Source: Candidatus Egerieisoma sp. (GTDB taxonomy: Bacteria; Bacteroidota; Bacteroidia; Bacteroidales; UBA932). From it: 64,000 nt of DNA. The notes beneath the pieces were generated by a model. That model searched no databases, was not told where the DNA came from, and saw only the letters and a list, made by a program, of their open reading frames with translations. The DNA lies in assembly GCA_045613465.1 (NCBI GenBank), contig JAZLBB010000091.1, positions 23,021 through 87,020 of the forward strand. Reading direction: 5' to 3'. Position numbers and translations under genes: made by a program. The number at the start of each line of letters is the position of its first letter. The stretch's first letter is position 1. Positions 863 through 57,437 of the stretch are shown one piece after another.

Positions 863-2932
863 ATGATTACTAAAGAGCTTATAAATCCCAGAAGCATTGT
901 TGTTGTAGGTGGATCTGATGATTCTGCAAAACCGGGTGGAAATGCACTTAAAAACTTGATAGAGACAGGTTTTAAAGGGGATTTGTATGTTGTTAATCCT
1001 AAAAACAACGTTGTTCAGGGTATTCCTGCATATAAAAGCGTAATGGATTTACCTCAGGTTGATTGTGCAATATTGGCTATACCTGCCCAGATGTGCCCTT
1101 CTACAGTTGAGATATTGTGTGCTGAAAAAGGTTGTAAAGCTGTAATTATTTTTTCTGCAGGTTTTCACGAAGATGGCCACCAAGGGGCTTTGCTTGAACA
1201 AGAGATTGTGGAAACAGTAAATAAATATGGTGCATCTTTAATTGGCCCGAATTGCATAGGAATCATTACCAACCATTATGCTGGAGTTTTTACCAAGCCT
1301 GTAAGTAACCTTTCCCCTAAAGGAATAGATATCATTTCAGGTTCTGGAGCTACAGTTGTTTTCATAATGGAAGAGGCTGCCAAACGTGGATTGAAATTCT
1401 CTCATGTCTTTTCTGTAGGAAACAGTGCTCAGATTGGAGTTGAGGATTGTTTGGAGTATTTGGATCTTAATTATATTCCTGGTGAAAGTTCACCTGTAAA
1501 ACTACTTTATATTGAGAGTATAAACAATCCTGAGAAACTTTACAGGCATGCCAGATCGCTGATAAAAAAGGGGGTAAAAATCTCAGCAATTAAAGCTGGC
1601 TATAGCGATGCCGGAAGTCGTGCTGCATCTTCTCATACAGGGGCTTTGGCCTCACCTGATTTGGCTGTTGATGCTTTGTTTGCCAAAGCAGGAATTGTGC
1701 GTGTGTACAACCGTACAGAGTTGATAGATATGGCATCAATATTTTCACTTCCTGCACCTGGCGGAAACAATATTGCAATTGTAACACATGCTGGAGGACC
1801 AGCTGTAATGCTTACTGATGTCCTTAGTAGCAATGGGATAAATATCCCTCATCTGCATGGTGATAAAGCTGATGAGCTTTTAGGTAAACTGTATCATGGA
1901 TCATCTGTTGCAAACCCAATTGATTTTCTTGCTACAGGAACAAAAGAGCAGCTGGGGCATATAATTGATGCATGCAACAATGATTTTAATCAGGTTGATG
2001 CAATAGCTGTAATTTTTGGAAGTCCTGGTCTTGTAGACGTTTCAGATGTGTACAGCTTTATTTTGGAGAAAATGAAAGACTCTCCTAAACCTATTTATCC
2101 TATTCTAACTTCTGTTGTAAACGCGCAAGAAGGTATAGAGATGTTCAGGAAAAATGGAGGAATCTGCTTTACAGATGAATGTGCATTTGGTAAGGCATTT
2201 GTTAATATGCAGAAAGCATTGGAGAGCTCATACGAAGATACCCTTTACCCTAATATAGAAGTTGAAACAATACGCAATATTATTGATTCTTCTCCCGATG
2301 GGTATCTTCAACCAATACAGGTGCAGCAGATTCTTGATGCGGCAGGAATAAATAGAGTTAAGGAGTTTACAGTTGTATCTGAGGATGAGGCTGTAAAAGC
2401 AGCACATATGGCTGGTTTTCCTGTAGCTATGAAAGTTGTGGGGCCTGTGCATAAATCTGATGTTGGTGGAGTTGTCCTTGGTGTTGCCGATGAGGATACT
2501 TTGAAGAAAGAATTCAATAGGATGATGGATATTCCTGAAACTGTCGGGATACTGGTGCAACCTATGATTTCAGGTACAGAGGTATTTATTGGCGCCAAAC
2601 GTGAAGGTGGATTTGGTGCTTTGGTCATGTGTGGCTTGGGTGGTATTTTTGTAGAGGCAATTAAGGATGTTTCTACAGGTTTGGCCCCTTTCTCTACAGA
2701 ATATGCCACTAAGATGATTAAAAAACTCCGTGGATACGGAATTATTAAAGGGTTGCGTGGTAAAGAGGGGGTAAATGAACTTATATTTGCAGAAATGGTT
2801 TCAAGAGTATCAACATTGTGCCATTTCTTCCCTCAAATTCAGGAGATGGATATTAACCCTCTATTGGGAAATAGTGTAAATTTGATTGCAGTTGATGCAA
2901 GAATAAGGATAGATAACGGAAATGAAAAATAA
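863..2932 (+). CDS. ADP-forming acetyl/acyl-CoA synthetase (fused CoA-binding/ligase and ATP-grasp domains)
   Basis: 689 aa. N-terminal CoA-binding fold (IVVVGGSDDSAKPGGNALKNL) and succinyl-CoA-synthetase-like middle region. C-terminal ATP-grasp (AGFPVAMKVVGPVHKSDVGGVVLGV). Confidence 0.8.
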   Translation: MITKELINPRSIVVVGGSDDSAKPGGNALKNLIETGFKGDLYVVNPKNNVVQGIPAYKSVMDLPQVDCAILAIPAQMCPSTVEILCAEKGCKAVIIFSAGFHEDGHQGALLEQEIVETVNKYGASLIGPNCIGIITNHYAGVFTKPVSNLSPKGIDIISGSGATVVFIMEEAAKRGLKFSHVFSVGNSAQIGVEDCLEYLDLNYIPGESSPVKLLYIESINNPEKLYRHARSLIKKGVKISAIKAGYSDAGSRAASSHTGALASPDLAVDALFAKAGIVRVYNRTELIDMASIFSLPAPGGNNIAIVTHAGGPAVMLTDVLSSNGINIPHLHGDKADELLGKLYHGSSVANPIDFLATGTKEQLGHIIDACNNDFNQVDAIAVIFGSPGLVDVSDVYSFILEKMKDSPKPIYPILTSVVNAQEGIEMFRKNGGICFTDECAFGKAFVNMQKALESSYEDTLYPNIEVETIRNIIDSSPDGYLQPIQVQQILDAAGINRVKEFTVVSEDEAVKAAHMAGFPVAMKVVGPVHKSDVGGVVLGVADEDTLKKEFNRMMDIPETVGILVQPMISGTEVFIGAKREGGFGALVMCGLGGIFVEAIKDVSTGLAPFSTEYATKMIKKLRGYGIIKGLRGKEGVNELIFAEMVSRVSTLCHFFPQIQEMDINPLLGNSVNLIAVDARIRIDNGNEK

Positions 2933-2984
2933 TTTTGCTAAATTAGCACAATGGTATAGAGATCTTACACCATCAGGAAAAAGC

Positions 2985-3108: not shown

Positions 3109-3330
3109 ATGGCAGTTAAAGGAGCTATTGTAGTAGATACAGAAAAATGCAAAGGTTGCAGTGTCTGCATTGCAAACTGTCCTACTCAGACAATTGCATT
3201 GTCAAAACAGGTGAATGGCAAGGGTTATAACTATGCATATATGGAGAACCCTGATGCTTGTATCGGATGTTCTAACTGTGCAACAGTTTGTCCCGATGCA
3301 GTAATTACAGTTTATAGAGTAAAAATATAA
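3109..3330 (+). CDS. korD: 2-oxoacid:ferredoxin oxidoreductase delta subunit (2x[4Fe-4S] ferredoxin)
   Basis: 73 aa with two CxxCxxCxxxCP motifs (CKGCSVCIANCP, CIGCSNCATVCP). First gene of a 4-gene KOR/VOR-type cluster. Confidence 0.85.
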   Translation: MAVKGAIVVDTEKCKGCSVCIANCPTQTIALSKQVNGKGYNYAYMENPDACIGCSNCATVCPDAVITVYRVKI

Positions 3331-4427: not shown

Positions 4428-5189
4428 ATGGATATAAAGGATATTATCAGACCGGAGAATATGGTATATGCCAAAACTCCTATTCTTACAGATGCTGTAA
4501 TGCACTATTGTCCCGGATGTTCACATGGTGTAGTACACAAAGTTATTGCGGAGGTGATTGATGAGATGGGAATTCAGGATAAAGCAATGGGAGTTTCACC
4601 TGTAGGATGTGCAGTACTTGCATATAATTACATTGATATTGATTGGCAGCAGGCTGCACATGGTAGAGCACCTGCATTGGCAACTGCAGCAAAACGTCTT
4701 AATCCCGACAAATATGTATTCACTTATCAGGGAGATGGAGACCTTGCATCAATTGGAACAGCAGAGGTAATGCATGCATGCAACAGGGGTGAGAATATAG
4801 TTATCATTTTTATCAATAATGCAATTTATGGTATGACAGGAGGTCAGATGGCCCCTACTACACTGCTTGGTCAGAAAACTGCAACAACTCCATATGGAAG
4901 GGATGCCAAACTTAATGGTTATCCTTTAAAGATTACTGAGCTTCTTGCTCAGTTGGAGGGTACCTGTTATGTTACACGTCAGTCGGCTCAAAACCCTGCT
5001 GCTGTACGTAAACTTAAAAAAGCCATCAGAAAAGCTTTTGAAAACTCAATGATGGAGAAAGGAACCTCTTTTGTTGAGGTAGTGGGTACTTGTAATTCCG
5101 GATGGAAACTTACACCTGTACAGGCAAACAAGTGGATGGAAGAGAATATGTTCCCATTCTATCCTCTTGGAGATATGAAAGACAGGTAG
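4428..5189 (+). CDS. korB: 2-oxoacid:ferredoxin oxidoreductase beta subunit (TPP-binding)
   Basis: 253 aa. Contains CPGCSHG cysteines and the TPP motif YQGDGDLASIG...NNAIYGMTGGQ. Confidence 0.9.
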   Translation: MDIKDIIRPENMVYAKTPILTDAVMHYCPGCSHGVVHKVIAEVIDEMGIQDKAMGVSPVGCAVLAYNYIDIDWQQAAHGRAPALATAAKRLNPDKYVFTYQGDGDLASIGTAEVMHACNRGENIVIIFINNAIYGMTGGQMAPTTLLGQKTATTPYGRDAKLNGYPLKITELLAQLEGTCYVTRQSAQNPAAVRKLKKAIRKAFENSMMEKGTSFVEVVGTCNSGWKLTPVQANKWMEENMFPFYPLGDMKDR

Positions 5190-6165: not shown

Positions 6166-6468
6166 ATGGAAGAAGAGAAACAGAGGATAAAGATTACAAT
6201 TGCTGAAAGGCAATATCCGCTGACAATCCACCCGTCGGAAGAAGAAAGTATGCGTATTGCTGTGGGAAAGATTAGAGATATGGTGGAGTTCTATAAAAGC
6301 AAGTTCAAGGACAGGGATGTTCAGGACGCATTATCAATGTCGGTACTGCAGTTTGCAGTTAAATTAGTTAAGTTAGAACAAAATAAGGAACTTGACAATT
6401 TAGTAGAAGACCTTAAGGTTTTGGATAGGCAATTGGATGAATATATTGCCTCTACAGACAAATATTGA
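6166..6468 (+). CDS. zapA: Cell division protein ZapA
   Basis: 100 aa. IKITIAERQYPLTIHPSEEESMRIAVGKIRDMV resembles the ZapA N-terminal domain, followed by a coiled-coil tail. Confidence 0.7.
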   Translation: MEEEKQRIKITIAERQYPLTIHPSEEESMRIAVGKIRDMVEFYKSKFKDRDVQDALSMSVLQFAVKLVKLEQNKELDNLVEDLKVLDRQLDEYIASTDKY

Positions 6469-6497: not shown

Positions 6498-6685
6498 CCG
6501 TTGGATCATAGCTCTTTGCGAAAATCAACACTATTTACAGAACCGAGTGACCAACAGACAAAAACAGGCCTAGGTGACCCTTCGGGGGATTCCGTTTATC
6601 GGGACGTTGGAAGTTTGCGACTACAATTGGAGCTCAAATCTTACTTTTTAAGATTTTTCTGAAAACAGCTGGTCCAGCGGCTTTT
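6498..6685 (+). ncRNA. Candidate structured small RNA between zapA and rny (6S/SsrS-like or 3'-UTR-derived sRNA)
   Basis: 283-bp non-coding gap. Near-consensus -7 box TATATTTT at 6487-6494. C(UUCG)G-type hairpin ccc-ttcg-ggg at 6578-6587. 8-bp end-to-end pairing of gccgttgg (6498-6505) with ccagcggc (6673-6680), followed by tttta. Internal terminator-like hairpin at 6636-6660. The boundaries are guesses. Confidence 0.35.
6636..6660 (+). terminator. Terminator-like hairpin inside the zapA-rny spacer
   Basis: 8-bp stem aaatctta/taagattt with loop ctttt, running into tttttct. Confidence 0.5.
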
Positions 6686-8371: not shown

Positions 8372-10681
8372 TTAGAATGGATATCCAACTCCAAACTGCA
8401 ATCCGTAATTTCCTTTCTTGAGCATACTTTTTGGACCTTTCCAATCATTTTTTGAAGGTTCATAAAGTTTAATACCCATATCGAGACGTAATATTACAAA
8501 ACTTAAATCTAGTCTCAATCCGGCACCCCAGTCGGCAGCTATATGTTTATAGAAGTTGTTGAATTCAAACAGACCTTCACGAGTCTCTTCTGAATTTGAG
8601 TTATCTTTAATGTTCCATACGTTACCGGCATCCATAAACAGAGCTCCTTCAAAATTCCAGAATAATGGGAAACGGTACTCTATGTTTGCTTCCAGTCTCA
8701 TATCTCCTGTCTGGTTTGGAATTGTAAATGTTTTGTCAACTGGTGCGTATCCAGGACCCACTGTTCTTGCTTGCCAGCCTCTTAAACTGTAAGCACCACC
8801 GGCCCAGAAAAGTTTCTCAAATGGAAGTGATACAGAGTTGCCGTAACCAACTCCAAAACCTGCAAGAAATCTTGTTGCTATTGAGTGGTTTTCTTTCTTA
8901 CCAAGTTTCCATGTGTATACGGTTGTAACCTCAGTTCTGTAATATTGGGAGTATGGAGATTCCCAGATCAATCTTTCTCCATTTGCATTTTTAGGCATTG
9001 ATGAATTGAACAGACTCAATAAGTTTCCCGACAGGTCATTCTGCCACCTCATATAAAAGTAGCTGTGTCTTGGCCTCGGAGATGCATCTGTAGTATAGTA
9101 GAAATTTGTTCCTAATCCAAGATCAAAGTGGTCCTGATATGAATTTATTAGGAATGGGTCATTTAGACTTTCGTAAAAATCAGATTTAAGGTTATACAGT
9201 TTTACTATGCTCAATTGGATTGGAGATATCTTAAAGAAAAATTTATCTTTTCTGTTCCATACATAGCTATAACTTCCTGAAAGTATATTTCTGGTATATT
9301 CCGGTCTTTGCTGGAAGTTATATGATATTGCAAATTCTGTGCGTGGTATATTTGTGGATTTGAATATTTTGTCGGGAAGAAGAAGGAAATTTGGTGTGCT
9401 CAATGAAGTTGCAGCACCAAATTCACTTGCCCTTTTGTTACTGTTGAATCCAAATTGAAAATCTCCCATCAAACTTATACTGAACAGCTCAGCACCTCTG
9501 AAAAGGTTTTTGTGATAATAGGATACCGATGGCGATATACTGTATAACCCTGTTGAATTCAATGAGCTTTCCAAACCTAGTTTATATCCCTGCAGTTCGG
9601 ATGCAGTAAGTTTCATTGTACAGTTGACAGTGTTGGAGTCTATTGGGTCCATTTGTATGTTTACACTGCTGAAAAGATTTAGATTTGAGAATCGGGAGTA
9701 AGTTCTGGCTACTTCCTCCTCGCTATATCTTTCTCCAGGTTCAACAAAATTCATTCTGCTTAGAACTCTTTTTCTGAGTAACAGATTGTTTCTGTACTTG
9801 ATTTTAAGTCCTCTGTACATGGTGGAGTCTGTTGCTGTATACAGATTCATTGATGGTACAGCTATTACAGAGTCCCCTACAAATGAATATACAAGTGGAT
9901 TAGACGGCTTTCTTATAGGCTGTATGGTTACATCACCATATTTGAATATCCTATGAGGCTTTGCGTCTTTTGGCTGTTCATTTCTGGAGTAATTCTTTAT
10001 ATCTACCTTTAATGAGGCTTTCCCATTTCCCGATAGAGTATCAGCGGTAAAAAACAGATAGTTCTTGGTAAATCCAAAATATCCGTCATTTCTCAGTTGG
10101 GATGCTATTTCTTCTGATGTGCTGTTAAGATACTCTTCCGACAATGGAGTGTTCTTTTTAATTACATTCTGCAGCGAATCATTGTAGAATGACTGAGCAA
10201 GGTCCTTGCAATCAATATTGTATGATATTGAGTCAATAATATATTGTTTGCCTAAATTTATTTTATAGTAAACAGTTGTTTTTTTCCTTTTTGTAACAAT
10301 AGAGTCTCTTACACTGGAGTTGTAGTAACCTTGATAATTCAAGTGATTCAGAATGTTTGTACGGGAATCAGCTACAAGTGATTTCTCAAAAATTACAGGT
10401 TCCTGACCAAGTTTGTGTACAAATCTGTCCCAACCTTTATCTTTTCCGTTGCTCCAGTTCCAAATGCTCAAAAATGGATTCCATCCAAAGATGATGGATG
10501 TATTAGGCTTTTGTTTGATATATGGAGCAAGACCAGATGTTTGATATTCTTTTGAATTCAGAATCTTTATTTCATTATCCACCAAACGGGATTCTCCAGA
10601 GGGAATAACTTTTGTTGTGGAGCATCCAGCCAGTGTCATTATCAAGACCAGGAATATATATTTCTTCAGTTTTGGCAACAT
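8372..10681 (-). CDS. Omp85-superfamily outer-membrane protein, lipidated TamA-like (TamL-type)
   Basis: 769 aa. Lipobox LAGC at residues 17-20. C-terminal bacterial surface antigen beta-barrel ending ...GLQFGVGYPF. Confidence 0.75.
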   Translation of the reverse strand: MLPKLKKYIFLVLIMTLAGCSTTKVIPSGESRLVDNEIKILNSKEYQTSGLAPYIKQKPNTSIIFGWNPFLSIWNWSNGKDKGWDRFVHKLGQEPVIFEKSLVADSRTNILNHLNYQGYYNSSVRDSIVTKRKKTTVYYKINLGKQYIIDSISYNIDCKDLAQSFYNDSLQNVIKKNTPLSEEYLNSTSEEIASQLRNDGYFGFTKNYLFFTADTLSGNGKASLKVDIKNYSRNEQPKDAKPHRIFKYGDVTIQPIRKPSNPLVYSFVGDSVIAVPSMNLYTATDSTMYRGLKIKYRNNLLLRKRVLSRMNFVEPGERYSEEEVARTYSRFSNLNLFSSVNIQMDPIDSNTVNCTMKLTASELQGYKLGLESSLNSTGLYSISPSVSYYHKNLFRGAELFSISLMGDFQFGFNSNKRASEFGAATSLSTPNFLLLPDKIFKSTNIPRTEFAISYNFQQRPEYTRNILSGSYSYVWNRKDKFFFKISPIQLSIVKLYNLKSDFYESLNDPFLINSYQDHFDLGLGTNFYYTTDASPRPRHSYFYMRWQNDLSGNLLSLFNSSMPKNANGERLIWESPYSQYYRTEVTTVYTWKLGKKENHSIATRFLAGFGVGYGNSVSLPFEKLFWAGGAYSLRGWQARTVGPGYAPVDKTFTIPNQTGDMRLEANIEYRFPLFWNFEGALFMDAGNVWNIKDNSNSEETREGLFEFNNFYKHIAADWGAGLRLDLSFVILRLDMGIKLYEPSKNDWKGPKSMLKKGNYGLQFGVGYPF

Positions 10682-10764: not shown

Positions 10765-11514
10765 ATGGCGGTACTTTCTGCAAATAAAATTAAATTCATA
10801 CGTTCGCTTTCACAGAAAAAATTCAGGGATGAGCATGGACTTTTCATAGCTGAAGGGGAAAAGATTGTAGAGGAGGCACTTAAATCGGGATATAATGTAA
10901 AAGAGGTATATCATGAGAAGGAAATTGGTCGTGAGGCAATGGAGAGAATTACCTGTCTGAATACCCCTTCACCAGTACTGGCGGTGATTGAGAAACCAAG
11001 TATTTCTCCCGACAGTATTCTCAAGTCCATTTCTGGAGAAGAAAGTTTATCGGGAAGAAAATCTTTGTTCCTGGCATTGGACGGAGTTAAGGATCCTGGA
11101 AACTTGGGGACTATTATCCGCATTGCAGACTGGTTTGGTATCGATGCCATATTTGCCAGCCCAGGTTCGGTTGAAGTGTACAATCCTAAAGTTGTTCAGG
11201 CAACGATGGGCGCAATTTTCCGCAAACAGGTTATCTATACAGATCTTCAAGAGGTTTGCCGGAAGTTTCTTGCGGCAGGGAAGCCTGTTTACGGCACCTT
11301 CCTTGATGGAAAGAATCTATATGAGAACCTTCATTCAGATAAAAAGCAAGGCCTCATAGTTATGGGAAGTGAATCTTTTGGGATCTCACCACAACTTGAA
11401 GCCCTGATTGACAACAAACTTCTTATTCCACCCTACCCTGCTGATTCTCAAACATCAGAATCGCTTAACGTAGCCATTGCCACAGCAATCATCTGTGCGG
11501 AATTTAGAAGATAA
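10765..11514 (+). CDS. TrmH/SpoU-family RNA 2'-O-methyltransferase
   Basis: 249 aa. SpoU motifs LALDGVKDPGNLGTIIRIADWFG and SLNVAIATAI. Confidence 0.85.
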   Translation: MAVLSANKIKFIRSLSQKKFRDEHGLFIAEGEKIVEEALKSGYNVKEVYHEKEIGREAMERITCLNTPSPVLAVIEKPSISPDSILKSISGEESLSGRKSLFLALDGVKDPGNLGTIIRIADWFGIDAIFASPGSVEVYNPKVVQATMGAIFRKQVIYTDLQEVCRKFLAAGKPVYGTFLDGKNLYENLHSDKKQGLIVMGSESFGISPQLEALIDNKLLIPPYPADSQTSESLNVAIATAIICAEFRR

Positions 11515-12322: not shown

Positions 12323-14254
12323 TTATTCACTTAATTCAGCCCACTCTTCCATTTTCTGGTCAAGTTCATTTTTGGCTGTTTCATATTTTGCTGTAAGCTC
12401 AAGAATCTTGTCGGGAGCAGTAACATTTCCCAACTCCTCTTCCAACTGGGCTATTATCCCCTCCAACTCCTCAATTCTGGCTTCACATTGCTGTATTTTC
12501 TTTTTAAGTCTGCTCTTTTCCCTCTCTATCTCTTTCATTTGCTGATAAGTGAGTTGAGCATCAGCTTTTGTTGCTTGAGCTGCAGTTGCAGCTGGTGTTG
12601 CAGCTGTTGATACAGGTGCTTTTCTCTCCAGCTCACTTAGGTTTTCAAGTCTCTTTCTTGCAAGAAAGTCCTGTACTCCTCCAAGATGTTCCTTAACCTT
12701 ACCATCTTTGAATTCGTAGATTTTGTCTACCAGACCATCAAGGAAGTCGCGGTCATGTGACACAATAACAAGAGTACCATCATAAGCCTGTAGCGCTTGT
12801 TTGAGGATATCCTTAGAGATAAGGTCCATATGGTTCGTAGGCTCATCCAGTGCTAAAAGGTTGTGTGGCTTTAACATAAGTTTTGCCATTGCCAGACGTG
12901 CACGCTCACCTCCGCTAAGAACTGCAACTTTCTTGTCTATATCTTCTCCTCTGAACAGAAATGCACCAAGAATATCCCTCAATTTTGTGCGGATATCCCC
13001 TACAGCTATTTTGTCCAGTGTATCAAATACTGTGTCATTTTTGTCAAGGACATCCTCCTGGTTCTGGGCAAAGTAACCCATATCTACATTGTATCCAAGT
13101 CCTGCTTCTCCATCTATCGGGAAAAGCTCTTTGGTTATAATTCTCATAAGGGTTGTCTTTCCCTCTCCGTTCCTTCCTACAAAAGCAATCTTTTCTCCCC
13201 TCTCTATAGATATGTTTACACCATCAATAATCACTTTTTTGCCGTAACCTATTGTGGCGTTCTTTGCACTGAAAACAATCTGTCCACTACGTGGTGCAGG
13301 TGGGAATTTCACACTTAATGCACTTTTATCCTCTATGTCAACCTCTATTCTTTCAAGTTTGTCTAGCTGTTTTATTCTGCTTTGTACCTGATTGCTCTTT
13401 GTTGCCTTGTAGCGGAAACGCTCAATGAATTCCTCGGTCTTCTCAATCATTTTCTGCTGGTTTTCGTAGGCTGCAAGCTGCTGCTGCATCCTCTCTGCCC
13501 TGAGTTCTTTGTATTTTGAGTAAGGAACCTTATAATCATATATTTTACCAAGCATTATCTCTACTGTACGCTTGGTTATATTATCCAGAAATTTACGGTC
13601 GTGAGAGATAAGTACTATTGCACCCGGAAAATTCTTCAAGTAATCTTCAAACCATTCAATTGACTCAATATCCAGGTGGTTTGTAGGCTCATCCAAAAGT
13701 AGCACATCAGGTTTGCGTAGAAGTACCTTTGCCAACTCAATACGCATATTCCAACCCTGACTGAATGTTGATGTAGCTCTCTCAAGGTCTTCCCTTTTGA
13801 ATCCAAGGCCAACAAGAACTTTCTCGGCCTGTGAACGTACCGGTTCTGCCTCAAGTATTGCTACACGGTCATTATACTCGTTTAGCTTTACAATAAGGTT
13901 GTTATAACCTGATGAATCATAATCAGACCGCTCACCAAGTTCAATGTTTATTTTTTCTATTTTTTCATGCAGTGCAAACAGCTCGTTGAATGCAGTTAGG
14001 GCTTCGTCAATTACACTTTTGTCCTTTGCATGCTCCATTTGCTGAGGCAGGTATCCAATGGTGAGCCCGGGAGGAACCATAACCTTTCCCCCTGTAGGGG
14101 TGTTTATCCCCAAAATAAGTTTGAGCAAGGTAGATTTTCCTGCTCCATTCTTCCCGACAAGTCCAATCCTGTCGTTGTCTGTTATATGAAAATTGATATC
14201 ATTGAGCAATGTAAAACCGCCGAATGATACATTTACATTATTTATCGATATCAC
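12323..14254 (-). CDS. ABC-F family ATPase (two ABC domains, C-terminal coiled coil)
   Basis: 643 aa. Walker A motifs GLVGKNGAGKST and FVGRNGEGKTT. Signature LSGGERARL. No TM domain. Confidence 0.9.
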   Translation of the reverse strand: MISINNVNVSFGGFTLLNDINFHITDNDRIGLVGKNGAGKSTLLKLILGINTPTGGKVMVPPGLTIGYLPQQMEHAKDKSVIDEALTAFNELFALHEKIEKINIELGERSDYDSSGYNNLIVKLNEYNDRVAILEAEPVRSQAEKVLVGLGFKREDLERATSTFSQGWNMRIELAKVLLRKPDVLLLDEPTNHLDIESIEWFEDYLKNFPGAIVLISHDRKFLDNITKRTVEIMLGKIYDYKVPYSKYKELRAERMQQQLAAYENQQKMIEKTEEFIERFRYKATKSNQVQSRIKQLDKLERIEVDIEDKSALSVKFPPAPRSGQIVFSAKNATIGYGKKVIIDGVNISIERGEKIAFVGRNGEGKTTLMRIITKELFPIDGEAGLGYNVDMGYFAQNQEDVLDKNDTVFDTLDKIAVGDIRTKLRDILGAFLFRGEDIDKKVAVLSGGERARLAMAKLMLKPHNLLALDEPTNHMDLISKDILKQALQAYDGTLVIVSHDRDFLDGLVDKIYEFKDGKVKEHLGGVQDFLARKRLENLSELERKAPVSTAATPAATAAQATKADAQLTYQQMKEIEREKSRLKKKIQQCEARIEELEGIIAQLEEELGNVTAPDKILELTAKYETAKNELDQKMEEWAELSE

Positions 14255-23109: not shown

Positions 23110-23110
23110 T

Positions 23111-24841: not shown

Positions 24842-24863
24842 TTTCTTCCCGACAGATACTATA

Positions 24864-25748: not shown

Positions 25749-25765
25749 ACCTGTCGGGACAAAAA

Positions 25766-44856: not shown

Positions 44857-45513
44857 TTATTTGCTCCAACCTTTACTTCTGATTATATCTGATATAACTT
44901 TAACGCAACCTTCTATTCCCAAGAGTGATGAATTAAGGCAAACATCATATGATGCAGCAGCTCCCCATTGTTTGTATGTGAAGTAATTATAGTAGTTCTC
45001 CCTTTTTGAATCGCTCTTTTCAAGGAGTTCCTGCATCTGATCTTTTGAGTATTTTTCTGCGTTCTTAATCTTGTTATGCTCTAACAATCTTTCTATTCTG
45101 TCTTGTGCAGATGCTGTGATGAATACATTGAGACAGTTGCTTCTCTCCCTTAAAATATAATCAGCACAACGCCCCACAAATATTGCAGATCCTTCATTTG
45201 CAATTTTTATTATGCATTCACTTTGAATTCTGAACAACTCTTCTCTATTTATTCCCGATGTTGTTCCATACTCACTGTACAGTGATCCCATTACACCGCT
45301 AAAGAATCCTGAGATGAATTTTGAGCCTCTCTTTTCATCTATATTGGCAAACAGTTCCTTACAGAGTCCGCTCTCTTTTGCAGCTTCATCTATAAGTTGT
45401 TTGTCATATTGCGGAATACCAAACTCTTCTGCAAGTTTCTGTGCAATTTCCAATCCGCCAGAACCTTTCTCGCGGCCAATGGTAATGTAGAATTTAGTTT
45501 CCATAGTGTTCAT
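44857..45513 (-). CDS. Cytidylate kinase-like family protein (P-loop NTPase)
   Basis: 218 aa. ITIGREKGSGGLEIAQKLAEEFGIPQYD pattern. Lies between two MATE paralogs. Confidence 0.65.
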   Translation of the reverse strand: MNTMETKFYITIGREKGSGGLEIAQKLAEEFGIPQYDKQLIDEAAKESGLCKELFANIDEKRGSKFISGFFSGVMGSLYSEYGTTSGINREELFRIQSECIIKIANEGSAIFVGRCADYILRERSNCLNVFITASAQDRIERLLEHNKIKNAEKYSKDQMQELLEKSDSKRENYYNYFTYKQWGAAASYDVCLNSSLLGIEGCVKVISDIIRSKGWSK

Positions 45514-46864
45514 TGTTTTTAAAATTCTTTATTTGCTTGTATAGAAGAACAAATGCAATCAAACTTGAAAGTCCGTCTGCAACAGGCATACTTAGCCAGA
45601 TTCCATTTGTTCCCATTAGAGGAGGTAATATCAGCAGTCCTGGAAGAAGGAAGATGAGCTGTCTTGTCAATGACATGAATACAGATTTTCCAGCCATTCC
45701 TACGCTTTGGAAGAAGTTTCCAGCTACAATTTGAAAACCAATTATCGGGAAGCAGGCAAATACAATTCTCATTCCTATAATAGAATGCTGGATAAGTTCC
45801 TCATCTGTTGTAAATACCATAGAAATTGCCCTTGGGAATAGCTCAGCCATAAGGAATCCTGTTGTTGTAACGGCTGTTGCACAAATTATTGTAAGTTTAA
45901 GGGCTTCCAATGTCCTTTTGAACTGTTTTGCACCATAGTTAAATCCAACAATCGGCTGCATTCCCTGGTTGATTCCAAGTACTATCATTACAAATACAAA
46001 TGATACTCTATTTACTATTCCGTATGCTCCAATTGCAAGATCTCCACCGTGCTCTTGTAGACCCTGGTTGATTAAAATAACAATAAGGCAGGCTGCTGAA
46101 TTCATGAAAAATGGAGCCATACCAATTGAAATGACATCCTTTACAATTCGTGCTTTAAGTTTATAGATTCCTCTTCTGAAATGAATTACAAGATTCTTGT
46201 CTGAAAATACTTTAACTGTCCATCCCAGTGCCAATGTCTGAGATATAACTGTAGCTATTGCAGCACCTTTTATGCCCCATTCAAATACATATATGAATAG
46301 AGGATCCAGAATTGCATTTATAATAACTGTAAATATTGTCAGATACATAGCCTTTTTGGGAAGACCAGCAGATCGCATAACTGCATTTAGTCCCAAGTAC
46401 ATATGTGTAACAATATTTCCAAGCAGAATTATTGTCATATAATCTCTAGCATAGCCTATGGTATTTTCACTGGCTCCAAAGAAGTATAGTATAGGATCCA
46501 GGAACACTAGAAATACAATGCTGTATAATACTCCAATGATGGTATTAAGAGTGATTACGTTACCCAATACCTTTTGTGCCATCTCATAGTTCTTCTGCCC
46601 AAGAAGCATTGATATAGTTGCCGATGCTCCAACTCCTACGAGGGCTCCAAAAGCTGCACCGAGGTTCATCAATGGAAAAGTAAGGGCAAGACCTGCAATT
46701 GCAAATTTTCCAACACCATGCCCAATAAAAATACTGTCAACCATATTGTACAATGACGAAGCTGTCATTGCAATGATTGCCGGAACTGCGTATTGCCTCA
46801 GCAATTTAGAAATTTTTTCAGTTCCCAACTCTGTAGGAACACCTGCTACTGCCATAAATTTCAA
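45494..46864 (-). CDS. MATE-family efflux transporter (paralog 2)
   Basis: 456 aa, colinear with paralog 1 (LLRQYAVPAIIAMTASSLYNMVDSIFIG ... LDPILYFFGASENTIGYARDYM). Confidence 0.85.
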   Translation of the reverse strand: MKFMAVAGVPTELGTEKISKLLRQYAVPAIIAMTASSLYNMVDSIFIGHGVGKFAIAGLALTFPLMNLGAAFGALVGVGASATISMLLGQKNYEMAQKVLGNVITLNTIIGVLYSIVFLVFLDPILYFFGASENTIGYARDYMTIILLGNIVTHMYLGLNAVMRSAGLPKKAMYLTIFTVIINAILDPLFIYVFEWGIKGAAIATVISQTLALGWTVKVFSDKNLVIHFRRGIYKLKARIVKDVISIGMAPFFMNSAACLIVILINQGLQEHGGDLAIGAYGIVNRVSFVFVMIVLGINQGMQPIVGFNYGAKQFKRTLEALKLTIICATAVTTTGFLMAELFPRAISMVFTTDEELIQHSIIGMRIVFACFPIIGFQIVAGNFFQSVGMAGKSVFMSLTRQLIFLLPGLLILPPLMGTNGIWLSMPVADGLSSLIAFVLLYKQIKNFKNNEHYGN

Positions 46865-47079: not shown

Positions 47080-47505
47080 TTATTGTACCTCAATTTGCTT
47101 CTCAACAGGCTCCGATTTGTCGGGAGTTTTCTTAGGAATAATTACTTCCAAAACTCCATTGTTCACTTTTGCCTCAATTTTGTCTTTATCTACATTTTCC
47201 GGCAAAATCAAATTCTGTTGAAATTGAGAGTACGAAAATTCTTTACGCAGGTATCTTCCCTTTTTATCCTTTTCTTCATTCTTCTGTTCTTGTTTCACAG
47301 TTACAGTAAGAAGATTGTCATTGGTGATTTTAATTGTAAAATCATCTTTTGTAAGGCCGGGTGTCGCCATTTCAACTTTGAACTGTTCGTCTGTTTCAAT
47401 AATGTTCATTGGTGAAGATGAATGAAGTCTCTCTACCCAATCACTACCAATAAAATCATTGAATATTGACGGGAACCAGCTCTGATTCTTTTTTGTTGGT
47501 AACAT
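47080..47505 (-). CDS. Hsp20/alpha-crystallin small heat-shock protein
   Basis: 141 aa. Alpha-crystallin domain (FKVEMATPGLTKDDFTIKI...NGVLEVIIPK). Confidence 0.9.
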   Translation of the reverse strand: MLPTKKNQSWFPSIFNDFIGSDWVERLHSSSPMNIIETDEQFKVEMATPGLTKDDFTIKITNDNLLTVTVKQEQKNEEKDKKGRYLRKEFSYSQFQQNLILPENVDKDKIEAKVNNGVLEVIIPKKTPDKSEPVEKQIEVQ

Positions 47506-47640: not shown

Positions 47641-48129
47641 ATGAAGATAAACAAGACAAATGCTGCAAGGATTTTAGACCAGAAGAAAATTAAATATGAA
47701 CTTGTACCTTACGAGGTAGATGAGAACAATTTAGCAGCTACACATGTAGCGGAGCAGTTGGGTGAGGATATTGCACAGGTATTTAAAACTCTGGTACTTA
47801 GAGGTGATAAAAATGGCTTGTTTGTATGTGTAATCCCTGGAGATAAGGAGGTTGACCTTAAAAAGGCTGCAAGGGTATCAGCAAATAAGAAGGCAGAAAT
47901 GATTGCAATGAAGGAACTTTTGCCTCTTACTGGATATATCCGAGGAGGGTGTACCCCAATTGGAATGAAGAAACCCTACCCTACATGGATTCATTATACT
48001 GCTACAAATTTCCCTTTTATATACATTAGTGCAGGCCAGAGAGGACTTCAATTGAAACTTAATCCCGACGATCTTATAAATTCTTTTAATATTACTATAT
48101 CTGATCTGATTGCTGAACAGGAAGTATAA
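47641..48129 (+). CDS. ybaK: Cys-tRNA(Pro)/Cys-tRNA(Cys) deacylase YbaK
   Basis: Start at MKINKTNAARILD. The track start at 47614 precedes the -7 box. YbaK/EbsC pattern KTLVLRGDKNG...VDLKKAA...GGCTPIG. Confidence 0.85.
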   Translation: MKINKTNAARILDQKKIKYELVPYEVDENNLAATHVAEQLGEDIAQVFKTLVLRGDKNGLFVCVIPGDKEVDLKKAARVSANKKAEMIAMKELLPLTGYIRGGCTPIGMKKPYPTWIHYTATNFPFIYISAGQRGLQLKLNPDDLINSFNITISDLIAEQEV

Positions 48130-48212: not shown

Positions 48213-49877
48213 TTATAATGTGAATTCAGCTATAGCAACTCCATATTTGTTAAAGTGCATTTCAAGCTGCTCAAATGGATTTAACTGACCATACGGAATC
48301 TGCCAGAATCTGAACATATCATCGGGAAGATTTACTTTAGCATTTTTATAAGATTGTGAGAAATCTACAGCAATAATTACAAGTTTTCCCTTTTCCTCTA
48401 AACTTTCTGTAAGTAGTTCATTCCCACCTCTATGGAAGTTTTCAGCAATATTCTCCGCGTAGTATTTGCGTGCAAATACAAAACACCTGTTGGTATCAAA
48501 TAGTGGGTTATTGTAATTTGCATATTGGAGGTCAAATGTATCTCCACAAGTAATTGCTTTATTGCTCATTGCAAATGAGAACAGTTCTTTATATACTTCA
48601 AGTAATTGGCTCTCATTCTCAAGCAGTTTGCCTGTATTCATCCTTACAACGCCAGGTGCTGAGCACCAATCAAAAATGGATGTTCTTCCATCTTTGCCGC
48701 TGAATCCCTCTTCAAGCATACCTTTTTCTCCTACTTCCTGTCCAAAATATAGCATGAATGGAGCTTTATTAAGCATTAGTGATACTACTAATGATGGTAT
48801 TCCTTTAAATGGATTTGCAAGATTGAATTCAGATGCAATTCTTTGTTCATCATGATTTTCAAGGAAATTAAGCATTTTGTTCTGCTTGTCATTTATGCTC
48901 TGCCAGCAACCTGTTATTTCGCTTGAACTTCTATGACCTTGTGAAATGTATTTTAAAGTGTCGTACAAACCTACTTTGTCGTACAGATAATCAAAACCAC
49001 CTCTGTACATGTAGTCGGAATACATTGCAGGATTATAAACTTCTGCAATGAACTGTAATTTAGGGTATTTCTGTTTTACCTCCTTGATACACCACTCCCA
49101 GAACTCTACTGGCACAAGTTCTGCCATATCGCATCTGAAGCCATCAACTCCTTTTGATGCCCAGAAGCAAAGAATATCGTGCATTATATACCAGGTTTTT
49201 GGGATTGGGTAGAAATGTCCTTTGCGGCCATTCATATAATCAACCCCATAGTTCAGTTTAACTGTTTCATACCAATCATTTTCAGTGGGATGTGCTGTAA
49301 AACAGTCATTACCTGTTGCTTTTGCTGGTCGCTCGTAATATGTACCTTTTGAGAACATTTCTCCTGGAAGGTAATAGTAATTATTGTCGGGAGAAAAAAT
49401 ATTCTCATTGTCTCCTATTCCAAAATCTTTTGCCCAATAAGGAATTGAGTCTGAATTGTATTCTCTTGCAAGGTGATTGGGTACAAAATCAAGAATGACG
49501 TTGAATCCTGCATTGTGAGTGCGTTGTACGAGATTTTCAAACTCACCCATTCTGTTCTCTACTGAATCTGCAAGATATGGGTTTACATCGTAGTAGTCTT
49601 TTATGGCATAAGGTGATCCTGCTTCTCCTTTTATAACTGATGGGTTGTCTCTTCTTATACCATATTCTTCAAAGGATTCTTTTGTTGCGTGTTCAATGAT
49701 ACCTGTATACCATATATGGGTTACACCAAGAGTGTGAAGATGTTCAAACACATTTTCATTGATGGATGAGAATTTTCCTGTTCCGTTTATCTGCAAGGGA
49801 CCGTCGGGGATACAATTATCGTTTGTATTTCCAAAGACTCTGGGCAATAATTGGTAAATTATAAATTTCTTCTCCAT
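48213..49877 (-). CDS. GH13 alpha-amylase-family glycoside hydrolase (cytoplasmic, no signal peptide)
   Basis: 554 aa. GH13 regions DFVPNH, GVDGFRCDMA, EVY..., FLENHD. Confidence 0.85.
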   Translation of the reverse strand: MEKKFIIYQLLPRVFGNTNDNCIPDGPLQINGTGKFSSINENVFEHLHTLGVTHIWYTGIIEHATKESFEEYGIRRDNPSVIKGEAGSPYAIKDYYDVNPYLADSVENRMGEFENLVQRTHNAGFNVILDFVPNHLAREYNSDSIPYWAKDFGIGDNENIFSPDNNYYYLPGEMFSKGTYYERPAKATGNDCFTAHPTENDWYETVKLNYGVDYMNGRKGHFYPIPKTWYIMHDILCFWASKGVDGFRCDMAELVPVEFWEWCIKEVKQKYPKLQFIAEVYNPAMYSDYMYRGGFDYLYDKVGLYDTLKYISQGHRSSSEITGCWQSINDKQNKMLNFLENHDEQRIASEFNLANPFKGIPSLVVSLMLNKAPFMLYFGQEVGEKGMLEEGFSGKDGRTSIFDWCSAPGVVRMNTGKLLENESQLLEVYKELFSFAMSNKAITCGDTFDLQYANYNNPLFDTNRCFVFARKYYAENIAENFHRGGNELLTESLEEKGKLVIIAVDFSQSYKNAKVNLPDDMFRFWQIPYGQLNPFEQLEMHFNKYGVAIAEFTL

Positions 49878-51397: not shown

Positions 51398-53458
<2,061 letters not shown>

Positions 53459-53461: not shown

Positions 53462-54649
53462 ATGAGAAACGTCTATATCAATAAAAACATTTACTACTTG
53501 GGAGTCAATGACAGACGCAAACATTTGTTTGAGAATAACTGGCCACTCCCCTACGGAGTTTCATATAACTCATATCTTATTAAAGATGAAAAGAGCGTAC
53601 TTATAGATACCATTGAATATGGCAGTAATGACAATTATCTGAATAATATTGAGCGTATCCTTGATGGTGCCCCATTGGATTATCTTGTAGTAAACCATAT
53701 GGAACCTGACCATTCAAGTATGATAGAGTGTGTACTCAGAAGGTTTCCTCAAGTTAAGATTATCGGGAATGCCCAAACAACAAAAATAATAAAGCTTTAT
53801 TTTAATATTCCCGACGAATCATTAGTTACAGTAAAAGACGGGGAATCAATTTCTTTAGGAGAACATAACTTGTCATTCCATTTTATTCCGTGGGTACACT
53901 GGCCTGAAACCATGGTAACATATGAACAAACTACCCAGACACTGTTCTCATGTGATGCTTTTGGTGGATTTGGAACATTGGATGGAAGTATTTTTGATGA
54001 TGAGAATGATTTTGAGGGACACTATAAAGCTGAAATGTTAAGGTACTATTCAAATATTGTAGGTAAATACAGCAATATGGTACAGAGAGCTTTTGATAAA
54101 CTTGCAGGTGTCCCAATCAAGACTATTTGTCCTTCTCATGGCCTTGTATGGCGAGGGAATCCTGGTAGAGTCCTAGAATTGTACTCTAAATGGTGCAATT
54201 GGGAATCTGAAAAAGGTGTAGTGATTGTATATGCAAGTATGTATGGAAATACTGAGCAGATGGCAGATTTTATAGGACGTATTATTGGTGAAAAAGGTAT
54301 TCCTGTAAGAACTTATGATGTATCTAAAACTCATGTGTCATATATATTGAGCGATATATGGAAGTATAAAGGACTTGTGTTGGGTACATGTGCATACAAT
54401 ACACAAATGCATCCAATGATGGAGCACTTGTGTAATGAGATAAAGCTAATAGCTCCTAAAAACAAAATTCTCTCTATCTTTGGAAGTTCAACCTGGAATG
54501 GCGCAGGTGTAAAATCCCTATTGAAATATGCTCCAGAAATGGGTATGGAGGTTACAGGTACACCTCTTGAGATAATGGGTTCTGCTACATACCAGAAACT
54601 TGAGCAGAGTGCAGAAATCTTTGTTGAAGAATTTGTTAAATCACTTTAG
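53462..54649 (+). CDS. Flavodiiron protein (FprA-type A-type flavoprotein)
   Basis: 395 aa. Metallo-beta-lactamase-like di-iron motif NHMEPDHSS plus a C-terminal flavodoxin domain (VVIVYASMYGNTEQMA). Confidence 0.85.
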   Translation: MRNVYINKNIYYLGVNDRRKHLFENNWPLPYGVSYNSYLIKDEKSVLIDTIEYGSNDNYLNNIERILDGAPLDYLVVNHMEPDHSSMIECVLRRFPQVKIIGNAQTTKIIKLYFNIPDESLVTVKDGESISLGEHNLSFHFIPWVHWPETMVTYEQTTQTLFSCDAFGGFGTLDGSIFDDENDFEGHYKAEMLRYYSNIVGKYSNMVQRAFDKLAGVPIKTICPSHGLVWRGNPGRVLELYSKWCNWESEKGVVIVYASMYGNTEQMADFIGRIIGEKGIPVRTYDVSKTHVSYILSDIWKYKGLVLGTCAYNTQMHPMMEHLCNEIKLIAPKNKILSIFGSSTWNGAGVKSLLKYAPEMGMEVTGTPLEIMGSATYQKLEQSAEIFVEEFVKSL

Positions 54650-56023: not shown

Positions 56024-57437
56024 ACTAGATATGAAATTATCTGCAAATGCTGTCAATTTTATTGATGACAACAAGTTGCAGGGGCTTTTGAGTTCTTCTA
56101 AAGAAGATTTGCCTCGTGCCCGTGAGCTTTTTAAGAAAGCATTGGATAAGAAACCCCTTTCTGTAGAGGAGACAGCTGTACTCCTTGCTATTGAATCTAA
56201 GGAGGGATTGGATGAGTTGTTTGCAGCAGCAAGAGAACTTAAAAGGAAAGTTTATGGGAACAGAATTGTCCTTTTTGCACCTCTTTATGTTGGTAATCAT
56301 TGTGTAAATAACTGCAAATATTGTGGTTTTAGAAAGGATGCCAAAGGTATTGTAAGAAAGACTTTGAACAATAAAGAACTCGTTTCTGAAATAGAAAATC
56401 TTGAGAAATACGGACATAAAAGACTTATTCTCGTATTTGGTGAGTCTCCGGTATATACTCCAGAGTTTATAGCAGAGAGTGTCAGGACATGTTATAGCAT
56501 TAAAGTTGGAAATGGTGAGATCAGAAGGGTAAATATAAATGCTGCACCTTTAGATGTTGAAGGTTTTAGAATTGTAAAAGAGGCTGGAATTGGTACTTTC
56601 CAGATATTCCAGGAGACATATCATCAGGAGACTTATTCTAAATATCACCCGTCGGGAGACATAAAAGGTGATTATATGTGGCGTCTTAACTCTATGGACA
56701 GGGCTTTTGAGGCAGGTATTGATGATATGGGAATAGGTGCACTATTTGGACTATATAATTGGAAGTATGAGGTTTTGGGATTGGTTTCTCATGCCCTTCA
56801 CCTGCAAAACACTTGCGGTGTGGGCCCTCATACAATCAGTTTTCCAAGGATTAAACCAGCAGCCGATATGAATCTGGAACTTCCTTATGAGGTTTCAGAT
56901 GATGAATTCAAGAGACTTGTGGCAATCCTCAGATTGGCTGTACCTTATACAGGATTGATTATGACTGCAAGAGAAAGCAGTGCAATCAGAGATGAGGTAA
57001 TTGAGTTTGGAGTATCACAGATAGATGCAGGAACAAAGTTGGAAATTGGAGGATATCAGAACCAGAAGGGTGATGAGCAAGATATTACAAAAGAACAATT
57101 TGTGATTGGTGATACCCGTGAGTTAGATGATGTTATGTACTGGCTGCTCACAAGTGGTTATATTCCTAGTTTTTGTACAGCTTGTTACAGAATGGGTAGA
57201 ACAGGTGAGCATTTTATGGAATTTGCAATACCGGGATTTATCAAGAGATTCTGTACTCCAAATGCAATCATAACTCTAGCTGAGTATCTCGAAGATTATT
57301 CAAGTGAGAAAACAAAAGCTGCGGGATACGCACTTATAGAAAAAGAATTGGAAAAGCTTCCCGACAGTGTACAGAAGGAGAAGATTATAGCTAATTTAGA
57401 GGCTGTAAAAAAAGGGACAAGGGATTTAAGGTTTTAG
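56010..57437 (+). CDS. hydG: [FeFe]-hydrogenase maturase HydG (radical SAM tyrosine lyase)
   Basis: 475 aa. Radical-SAM CVNNCKYCGF. C-terminal CTACYRMGRTGEHFMEFAIPGFIKRFC (CX2CX22C) distinguishes HydG from ThiH. An alternative start at 56031 avoids the overlap with yihY. Confidence 0.8.
   Translation: MKGIKLDMKLSANAVNFIDDNKLQGLLSSSKEDLPRARELFKKALDKKPLSVEETAVLLAIESKEGLDELFAAARELKRKVYGNRIVLFAPLYVGNHCVNNCKYCGFRKDAKGIVRKTLNNKELVSEIENLEKYGHKRLILVFGESPVYTPEFIAESVRTCYSIKVGNGEIRRVNINAAPLDVEGFRIVKEAGIGTFQIFQETYHQETYSKYHPSGDIKGDYMWRLNSMDRAFEAGIDDMGIGALFGLYNWKYEVLGLVSHALHLQNTCGVGPHTISFPRIKPAADMNLELPYEVSDDEFKRLVAILRLAVPYTGLIMTARESSAIRDEVIEFGVSQIDAGTKLEIGGYQNQKGDEQDITKEQFVIGDTRELDDVMYWLLTSGYIPSFCTACYRMGRTGEHFMEFAIPGFIKRFCTPNAIITLAEYLEDYSSEKTKAAGYALIEKELEKLPDSVQKEKIIANLEAVKKGTRDLRF

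Follow-up and report, generated by a model that had tools for sequence, protein, structure and literature searches.

The closest described systems are the DNA uptake sequences (DUS) and uptake signal sequences (USS) of Neisseriaceae and Pasteurellaceae, and the highly iterated palindromes (HIPs), of which HIP1 of cyanobacteria is one. DUS and USS are 9–12 bp long and 100–500 fold enriched. About half of them lie in terminators and 35–65% in open reading frames (ORFs), and they have approximately doubled the frequency of the peptides that they encode. A 2025 survey treated DUS and USS only within Neisseriaceae and Pasteurellaceae. Non-palindromic words that occur about once per kb, are symmetric between strands, are shared by a family and split into dialects have otherwise been described for DUS and USS only, in the literature consulted (including PMC3630211). 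HIPs are octameric palindromes linked to orphan methyltransferases (GATC/CGATCG); they number 1000–2000 per Mb, and the enrichment of HIP1 is 15–300 fold. Here we describe a short word, TCCCGAY, in 64,000 nucleotides of the genome of an uncultured gut Bacteroidales lineage known only from metagenome-assembled contigs, Candidatus Egerieisoma sp. (assembly GCA_045613465.1, contig JAZLBB010000091.1, positions 23,021 to 87,020), hereafter the window. Our analysis showed that this is a genuine, previously undescribed, lineage-specific and hyper-abundant word. A literature search found no TCCCGAC, GTCGGGA or degenerate forms in a relevant context, which agrees with the statement of a preliminary description of the same DNA that no such signal was known for Bacteroidales.

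An exact count in the window revealed 29 copies of TCCCGAC or its complement GTCGGGA, 15 of the former and 14 of the latter on the plus strand, exactly as in the preliminary description. All the coordinates listed there were right except one, given as 49387, whose true start is 49386. Dinucleotide-preserving shuffles of the window gave 1.36 ± 1.13 copies and never more than 5, first- to third-order Markov models predicted 1.3–2.8, and synonymous-codon shuffles of the coding sequences (CDS) gave 1.7 ± 1.2 against 28 found in them. The enrichment of TCCCGAC is thus 10–20 fold, at or above the 10-fold claimed earlier. The base that follows is A in 22 copies and G in seven, and three dominant 9-mers around the word account for 10, 11 and 6 copies, both as reported before; TCCCGACA is a motif-bearing sequence form of the word.

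The unit proposed at first, TCCCGAC(A/G), holds only half of the signal. Its C form is enriched, but so is TCCCGAT, with 25 copies against 3.6 expected, and the unit is better written as TCCCGA followed by YRR. In an exhaustive k-mer scan TCCCGA was the most over-represented hexamer of the window, with 58 copies against 8–12 expected (z = 13; runner-up 6.7), the first of them at 277, before the span stated in the preliminary description. When the 58 copies were aligned, Y was found at +7 in 54/58, R at +8 in 54/58, R at +9 in 50/58 and T at −3 in 38/58. TCCCGAY has 54 copies (0.84/kb), and TCCCGAYR has 51 against 1.95 ± 1.31 expected. With A, C or G in front of it, CCCGAY shows no enrichment (4 copies against 9.6 expected). 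Overall, TCCCGAY(RR) is 10–25 fold enriched and occurs at about 0.8–1 copy per kb (about 900 per Mb) in every part of the chromosome examined, the clade DNA covered being about 260 kb, i.e. the window and about 200 kb from relatives.

The reverse complement of TCCCGAY is RTCGGGA, and the word is therefore not palindromic. In a logo pooled from 131 distinct sites of six genomes, the informative positions extend from about −7 to +8 and read W T n H K n H TCCCGA Y R R (about 16 bp); the T periodicity at −3 and −6 may partly reflect third-codon composition. Judged from this logo, the footprint has the size of a putative protein-binding site. A dispersed repeat or a miniature inverted-repeat transposable element was ruled out, as the flanks have no similarity beyond about −7 to +8.

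We then compared these counts with what coding alone would give. The copies of TCCCGA are spread over 32 of about 55 genes, which are unrelated, and three intergenic spacers, with 55 of the 58 in ORFs. The 29 copies of TCCCGAC are read as Pro-Asp 17 times, Ser-Gly nine times and Val-Gly twice, and one (24847) is non-coding; the earlier tally was the same for Pro-Asp and Val-Gly but had one Ser-Gly too few and one non-coding copy too many. Synonymous codon permutation within genes, which keeps both protein and codon usage, yielded 9.8 ± 2.9 copies of TCCCGA against 55 in CDS, and 3.7 ± 1.7 copies of TCCCGAYR against 48. Whole-codon permutation yielded fewer copies of either than synonymous permutation. 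Five of the six strand and frame classes are enriched over the synonymous shuffles, each by 4–20 fold. The two dominant classes are nnT|CCC|GAY (Pro-Asp; 23 copies) and its opposite-strand counterpart TCG|GGA (Ser-Gly; 20 copies), whose cores are reverse complements of each other. Both use codons that are rare in the window, since CCC makes up 9% of the Pro codons and TCG 6% of the Ser codons. The adjacent third-codon base also follows the motif: T precedes CCC-GAY in 22/23 copies (p = 6e-9), and R precedes TCG-GGA in 17/20 (p = 1e-3).

Non-coding DNA across the clade has 13 copies in 11.5 kb, or 1.13/kb, which is 1.5 times the 0.75/kb of coding DNA. As composition predicts about 0.1/kb (about 6.4 per 64 kb), the non-coding density is about ten times the expectation. 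Taken together, the shuffles, the frame classes, the non-coding copies and the flanking base indicate that the word is a property of the DNA and not of the coding. This supports the conclusion that the force acts on a duplex DNA word rather than on protein or codon usage, as had been proposed, and the proposed independence of strand and frame holds as well. The shuffles did not reproduce the counts, the ratio of observed to expected stayed above about 2, and the copies were not confined to a few paralogous motifs; these were the three outcomes that the preliminary description had named as speaking against it.

The word is not a general feature of Bacteroidales. A ValS-based scan, in which each GTDB species was represented by one genome, yielded 80 Bacteroidales loci. 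The closest was a 3-kb contig of 'Rikenellaceae bacterium HGM05513' (92% identity), followed by Candidatus Caccoplasma and other Bacteroidales at 77%. No enrichment was found in these 80 loci, where the observed/expected ratio of TCCCGA was about 1, or 2–3 in Caccoplasma-like loci, versus 6.9 in the window. We also took RecQ and LigA homologues with 10-kb flanks from other assemblies. The relative loci fetched in this way (designated here, like those of the scan, by L numbers) come from the metagenome-assembled genomes (MAGs) GCA_045650045.1, GCA_054292945.1, GCA_045645465.1, GCA_045592425.1, GCA_036639755.1 and GCA_036645115.1. TCCCGAC is the top over-represented 7-mer in all eight relatives L081 and L083–L089, whose RecQ is 81–88% or LigA 77–83% identical. 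Their nucleotide identity to the window is 74–83%, and their third-position identity 49–60%. They have 8–15 copies of TCCCGAC per 22 kb against 0.4–1.0 expected (in L081, 12.5 kb long, 6 against 0.3) and 15–22 copies of TCCCGA per 22 kb. The word is also present in gene blocks of the relatives without synteny to the window.

The seventh base differs between lineages. C is dominant in L085, L086, L088 and L089, and both C and T are used in the window, in L083 and in L084. L090 (LigA 71%) has the dialect TCCCGAT(A), with 17 TCCCGAT versus one TCCCGAC, and both its sense and antisense copies are enriched. The word is not clearly enriched in L091 (LigA 69%). On the sequences compared, the trait is stable across a roughly genus-level clade, diversified inside it and fading outside. 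A further possible dialect, CCCCGAC in the GC-richer Bacteroidales loci L033 and L047, was dropped; its excess is about 4-fold (15–17 against 3.6–4.7), its copies track gene orientation (xxC CCC GAC), and it looks codon-driven. A preference for less conserved genes was only partly found. The density is lower in the most conserved genes (0.40/kb versus 1.01/kb), with a trend that is not monotonic and a Spearman correlation that is not significant.

Other over-represented words were seen in the same survey. CCTAAAG is enriched on both strands in L083, L086 and L087, at 9–12 copies per 19–22 kb against 1.1–1.6 expected, and may be a second iterated word of that sub-lineage. In the window there is an excess of the palindrome CAATTG (152 against 89–99), and GCAATTG is the top 7-mer of the motif-negative L091 (24 against 7.2). 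In other Bacteroidales loci, which came from the ValS-based scan, AGTGAAG is over-represented in L037 (18 against 2.3), CGTATGC (12 against 1.9) and CTGTTCC (13 against 2.2) in L003, AGTGTTA in L024 and CTAACTC in L039.

Codon alignments of orthologues showed how the sites are written. The word mostly sits on Pro-Asp or Ser-Gly dipeptides that are conserved in all genomes. It is written there by synonymous choice, CCC GAC versus CCA GAT or TCG GGA versus TCA GGA, with few amino-acid rewrites in variable regions. Site conservation was tested in the same way as for HIP1. For TCCCGA sites, the Jaccard index of the window with each of the eight positive relatives is 0.12–0.55, versus 0.04–0.21 for other hexamers with four G/C, the difference being seen in 8/8 relatives, which are not mutually independent. 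CCC is kept in 61% of cases inside the word versus 28% outside it, and TCG in 70% versus 15%. Sites are retained 2–3 times more than matched control words. About half of them differ between genomes that are about 18% diverged, and lineage-specific gains are found in each genome. Where an orthologous site does not hold the word, 19 of the replacement states are a single change away from it and 47 are at least two changes away. Among the single changes, the fourth base shows C/A (6), C/G (3) and C/T (3), and the first base T/C (4).

The window itself is an ordinary piece of Bacteroidales chromosome, with genes for ValS, RNase Y, TamL, RecQ, PckA, LigA, HydG, RelA/SpoT, electron transfer flavoprotein (ETF), transporters and others. 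No mobile-element, restriction or competence genes are among its genes, and no tRNA or Rfam matches were found in it. The 58 copies are oriented 28 plus to 30 minus. The GC skew of the window is positive throughout (+0.06) with a rising cumulative skew, and two-thirds of the genes are on the plus strand. It most likely lies in one replichore. The comparison of orientation with GC skew, which had been suggested earlier, thus gave an even split under a uniform skew. In the relatives the split ranges from 5:6 to 9:13. The distances between sites have a coefficient of variation of 0.94, which is Poisson-like at the scale visible in 64 kb. Close pairs of opposite orientation, 40–46 bp apart, number three against about 2.5 expected by chance, an estimate that assumes random spacing. 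No regular spacing, paired sites or inverted-repeat terminator pairs were found among the 58 copies of the window.

Adjacent copies tend to alternate in orientation (37:20 in the window, p = 0.03; 57:41 in the relatives, p = 0.13), which is a weak tendency. Another word, CCCCTA, is strand-skewed in the window, with 18 copies on plus and three on minus at 21 sites from 1314 to 59819, including plus copies inside minus-strand genes. Its abundance is mildly raised (21 against 7–19, depending on the model), and the skew was calculated without multiple-testing correction. CCCCTA, whose complement TAGGGG is G-rich, may be a word oriented with replication.

The 58 sites are given below along the window, each as the 7-bp stretch of the TCCCGA copy with its coordinates and strand, from the alignment of all 58 copies and the gene calls; sense and antisense refer to the strand of the gene on which the stretch lies. 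The first is TCCCGATAT at 277..283 (−), sense in an ORF at the left edge. The acetate-CoA ligase-like gene has TCCCGATGG at 2293..2299 (+, sense) and TCCCGACAG at 2543..2549 (−, antisense). An intergenic copy, TCCCGATGC, lies at 3291..3297 (+), and TCCCGACAA at 4703..4709 (+) is sense in the gene for the 2-oxoacid:Fd oxidoreductase beta subunit. Another intergenic copy, TCCCGATAA at 6598..6604 (−), is the only one in the zapA-rny spacer (6469–6751, 283 bp). This spacer also has a near-consensus sigma-70-like promoter, TTGACA-17-TATATT, at 6465–6493. No Rfam family reached the threshold in it; 6S RNA sits at a zapA-adjacent spacer position in some bacteria. Four copies are in the TamL gene: TCCCGACAG at 9026..9032 (+, antisense), TCCCGACAA at 9371..9377 (−, sense), TCCCGATTC at 9691..9697 (−, sense) and TCCCGATAG at 10028..10034 (+, antisense). 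Three are in the SpoU methylase gene, namely TCCCGATTT at 10884..10890 (−, antisense), TCCCGACAG at 11007..11013 (+, sense) and TCCCGATAA at 11049..11055 (−, antisense), and three more in ABC-F ATPase coding sequence, TCCCGACAA at 12410..12416 (−, sense), TCCCGATAG at 13116..13122 (−, sense) and TCCCGACAA at 14152..14158 (+, antisense).

These are followed by TCCCGATAA at 15547..15553 (−, sense) in a thioesterase gene, and by TCCCGACAG at 15745..15751 (+, antisense) and TCCCGACAA at 16990..16996 (−, sense) in the gene for a Ca P-type ATPase. The ValS copy, TCCCGACAA at 19470..19476 (−, sense), is kept in 3/3 relatives. After it along the window comes a copy-free stretch of 5.4 kb (19477–24846) with the 5′ end of the ValS gene and the genes for ETF and acyl-CoA dehydrogenase, whose proteins are 94–97% identical across relatives. 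The third intergenic copy, TCCCGACAG at 24847..24853 (+), is situated after the acyl-CoA dehydrogenase stop codon and before a terminator hairpin. Its core (TCTTCCCGACA) and the upstream TCT are invariant in six genomes (window 24842–24900), and the intrinsic terminator hairpin beside it varies in sequence yet stays self-complementary. Further copies are TCCCGACAA at 25184..25190 (+, sense) in a DUF5020 gene, and TCCCGACAG at 25753..25759 (−, antisense) and at 26542..26548 (+, sense) in a DUF2520 gene. The Maf gene has TCCCGATAA at 27134..27140 (−, antisense), TCCCGATTG at 27245..27251 (+, sense) and TCCCGAAGA at 27530..27536 (+, sense), the last with the core only and no Y. A hypothetical protein gene has TCCCGACAA at 28713..28719 (−, antisense).

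Five copies were identified in the RecQ gene: TCCCGATAT at 29816..29822 (−, sense), TCCCGACAG at 29945..29951 (−, sense), TCCCGACGA at 30266..30272 (+, antisense), TCCCGATGA at 30367..30373 (+, antisense), which is a window-specific gain, and TCCCGAATA at 30593..30599 (+, antisense), which has the core only. The genes for peptidase M15 and patatin have one each, TCCCGATGG at 32898..32904 (−, sense) and TCCCGACAT at 34292..34298 (−, antisense). Amidohydrolase coding sequence has TCCCGATGA at 35314..35320 and TCCCGACAA at 36611..36617 (both +, sense), and the gene for 5-FTHF cyclo-ligase has TCCCGATGA at 38538..38544 (+, antisense), TCCCGATAA at 38655..38661 (+, antisense) and TCCCGACGA at 38694..38700 (−, sense). 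TCCCGAAAA at 39326..39332 (+, antisense) in the MarC gene is again a core only. Single copies are found in the genes for a WYL protein (TCCCGACGA, 40315..40321, +, sense), a helix-turn-helix protein (TCCCGACGA, 41254..41260, −, antisense), an EamA transporter (TCCCGACAG, 42096..42102, +, antisense), a hypothetical protein (TCCCGATGA, 42992..42998, −, antisense), a cytidylate kinase-like protein (TCCCGATGT, 45253..45259, +, antisense), a MATE transporter (TCCCGATAA, 45744..45750, −, sense), Hsp20 (TCCCGACAA, 47119..47125, −, sense) and a YbaK-like editing protein (TCCCGACGA, 48063..48069, +, sense). The alpha-amylase copies are TCCCGATGA at 48321..48327 and TCCCGACAA at 49386..49392 (both −, sense). 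The LigA gene has TCCCGAAGC at 52063..52069 (−, antisense; core only), TCCCGATGG at 52259..52265 (+, sense) and TCCCGATAA at 52778..52784 (−, antisense). The flavodiiron protein gene has TCCCGATAA at 53762..53768 (−, antisense) and TCCCGACGA at 53809..53815 (+, sense), and the last two copies, TCCCGACGG at 56651..56657 (−, antisense) and TCCCGACAG at 57359..57365 (+, sense), are in the HydG gene. The rest of the window (57366–64000, 6.6 kb), with the genes for RelA/SpoT, a Big_5 protein, a hypothetical protein and IspG, is free of copies; L089 and L090 have copies there.

Two candidate functions do not agree with the data. The ratio of sense to antisense copies is what coding constraints predict, which argues against a role at the RNA level, and with no Rfam or tRNA match in the window an RNA-level signal was ruled out. 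Targets of restriction-modification systems are avoided or neutral in their host, and their specificity varies between strains. A restriction target does not fit a word that is enriched and stable across genomes with 49–60% third-position identity. Avoided words do exist in the window. CpG has an observed/expected ratio of 0.42, TCGA occurs 46 times against 189 expected, TCGCGA 0 times against 1–3, and GATC 260 times against 444. These deficits look like footprints of restriction avoidance or of methylation, and they make the survival of TCCCGAY, which contains a CpG, more striking.

Our tentative reading is that TCCCGAY with its weaker flanks may be a lineage-specific tag of the uptake type, read on double-stranded DNA by a conserved protein of the clade. 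It is ranked first because no other known process both generates and keeps copies of an asymmetric word chromosome-wide, and our confidence in it is nevertheless low. What the data leave is a directional force, exerted by a conserved, clade-specific factor that recognises the duplex word by its sequence. Under the uptake reading, cells would preferentially take up, or recombine in, fragments that bear the word, a transmission bias as in USS and DUS. Alleles gaining a copy would spread and alleles losing one would be replaced, and the word would serve in natural transformation as a tag of 'same-kind DNA'. The more specific claim would be that an uncultured genus-level group of gut and rumen Bacteroidales has a true uptake or self-recognition sequence, a 7-bp tag fitted in by synonymous choice with the dialects TCCCGAC and TCCCGAT, which would make it the first of its kind beyond Neisseriaceae and Pasteurellaceae, and also the first in Bacteroidota. 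Abundant gut anaerobes would then exchange DNA by sequence-selective natural transformation. This claim we regard as possible but doubtful.

Several results weigh against the uptake reading. No competence, pilus or receptor genes were found in the window or the fetched loci, and our literature search found no uptake sequences reported in Bacteroidota. The word has about seven firm bases and 10–25 fold enrichment, against the 9–12 bp and 100–500 fold of DUS and USS, and with so short a core and such an enrichment self and foreign DNA would be discriminated only about 10-fold. As many as 95% of the copies are in ORFs, the density in non-coding DNA exceeds that in coding DNA by a factor of only 1.5, and inverted-repeat terminator pairs are absent. 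The preliminary description had seen a USS/DUS-like signature; this is borne out by density, strand symmetry, sharing within the clade and dialects, but not by a concentration in terminators or intergenic DNA. Unlike USS and DUS, the word is written synonymously and its dipeptides are not inflated: Pro-Asp and Ser-Gly are no more frequent than in other Bacteroidales, and a USS-like reshaping of the proteome was not found. Finally, the 18 one-mismatch neighbours of TCCCGA are not enriched, summing to 276 in the window against about 276 expected.

What else could produce such a word must be weighed against the same data. Codon-pair preference, paralogous amino-acid motifs or a dispersed repeat might be suspected since 43 of the 58 copies fall in the two frame classes CCC-GAY and TCG-GGA, and since the sense-biased CCCCGAC excess of L033 and L047 is apparently codon-driven. 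However, shuffles of synonymous or whole codons give 4–10 copies where 48–55 are seen, enrichment extends to the other frame classes and to non-coding DNA, the flanking third-codon base follows the motif, the dominant codon pairs are mutually reverse-complementary and use the rare CCC and TCG, and the 32 genes are unrelated, with flanks that share no similarity. Coding artefacts, paralogous motifs and dispersed repeats are thus effectively excluded. A bias of mutation or repair that depends on context, either Vsr-like mismatch correction or local hypomutability, would let TCCCGAY accumulate neutrally. Acting alike on both strands, it would yield equal orientation, all frames and non-coding enrichment, and a lower exit rate would also yield 2–3 fold extra conservation; other strong context effects exist here, as in CpG and TCGA. 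The neighbours and the substitutions do not agree with it. No one-step neighbour is clearly depleted (TCCTGA has 64 copies against 38–50 and TCCCAA 41 against 41), and TCTCGA (6) and TTCCGA (8), at about 0.5–0.8 of expectation, are far too few to supply the flux. Replacement states show all types of substitution, including transversions, often at multiple positions. Very-short-patch (VSP) repair from T:G to C:G, the only known repair that generates words, cannot produce this pattern, and site conservation is far below that of a 10-fold lower exit rate. VSP words such as CCWGG in E. coli (Dcm/Vsr) are modestly enriched, have a markedly depleted T-containing neighbour and arise by C/T changes only. 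They resemble TCCCGAY in that a DNA-level process independent of coding raises their frequency, and differ from its 10–25 fold enrichment, its neighbours, none of which is depleted enough, and its gains through transversions and at several positions. A repair-generated origin, one of the options raised earlier, is thereby disfavoured in its known, Vsr-type form, and mutation or repair bias as a whole seems improbable.

With its G-rich 7-mer complement RTCGGGA, its clade specificity and its stability in core genes, the word recalls the Chi words of the AddAB/RecBCD helicase-nuclease or replication-oriented signals such as the FtsK orienting polar sequences (KOPS). The Chi words of Firmicutes are enriched 5–25 fold and occur about once per kb, much like the word here. 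Known Chi and KOPS words strongly follow the direction of replication, on the leading strand. The even orientation in a window that is probably a single replichore argues against such a polar signal, as do the splits in the relatives. Chi, KOPS and the architecture imparting sequences (AIMS) share with TCCCGAY a G-rich 7–8-mer complement, several-fold over-representation, genus specificity and presence in core genes; they are skewed to the leading strand, whereas TCCCGAY is unbiased between strands, both in the window and in every relative locus. We consider an origin of this kind very improbable. A HIP1-like signpost comes closer. TCCCGAY would then be bound or modified by a conserved chromosomal protein, for instance an orphan DNA methyltransferase or a protein associated with the nucleoid or with repair, and selection would maintain the required density of sites without any link to uptake. 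The density of about 900 per Mb is near the HIP range, the word occurs in every reading frame as well as in non-coding DNA, its sites and codons are more conserved than their controls by the test applied to HIP1, the copies do not concentrate in terminators, and the lineage variants resemble alternative HIPs. In addition, an asymmetric word of 6–7 bp with one degenerate base is a typical target of methyltransferases that modify a single strand. On the other side, HIPs are palindromic and TCCCGAY is not, no methyltransferase gene was found in the window or the fetched loci, and the spacing is Poisson-like at the scale visible in 64 kb, a 10–90 kb periodicity being beyond that scale. How such sites become enriched is unexplained even for HIP1. 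We regard a selected signpost of this kind as rather unlikely, though far from negligible.

If the uptake or self-recognition tag is true, species-selective natural transformation would extend to a dominant gut phylum, the modelling of gene flow in the gut, of species cohesion and of the spread of resistance genes would change, and the tag, added to donor DNA, would be a handle for the genetic manipulation of uncultured Bacteroidales. If it is not, the word would be the second independent hyper-abundant conserved word of unknown function after HIP1, and an asymmetric and phylogenetically delimited one. Motif-positive genomes, a dialect lineage and motif-negative sisters are all available, so that the responsible gene should be findable by phyletic comparison. 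As a taxon-specific marker, the word can already help with the binning of these MAGs and with the detection of foreign DNA in them.

Among the known systems, TCCCGAY is most comparable to HIP1 and to DUS and USS. With HIP1 of cyanobacteria it shares a density in the order of 10^3 per Mb, occurrence in all frames and in non-coding DNA, excess conservation of sites and codons, lineage variants and an unknown function. It differs in being asymmetric, while HIPs are palindromic and tied to methyltransferases, and in an enrichment below that of HIP1. It differs from DUS and USS in belonging to another phylum, one without known sequence-specific uptake, and in that the conserved copy at 24847 lies beside the terminator hairpin and not within it. 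Like DUS and USS, it is a short non-palindromic word present at about one per kb, in equal orientations, in several frames of genes and in non-coding DNA. A strong core is accompanied by weaker flanking positions, the sites are partly conserved and partly turning over, and the word is sparser in the most conserved genes. As in DUS and USS, related species share the word and have dialects at a single position, which is here C versus T at base 7.

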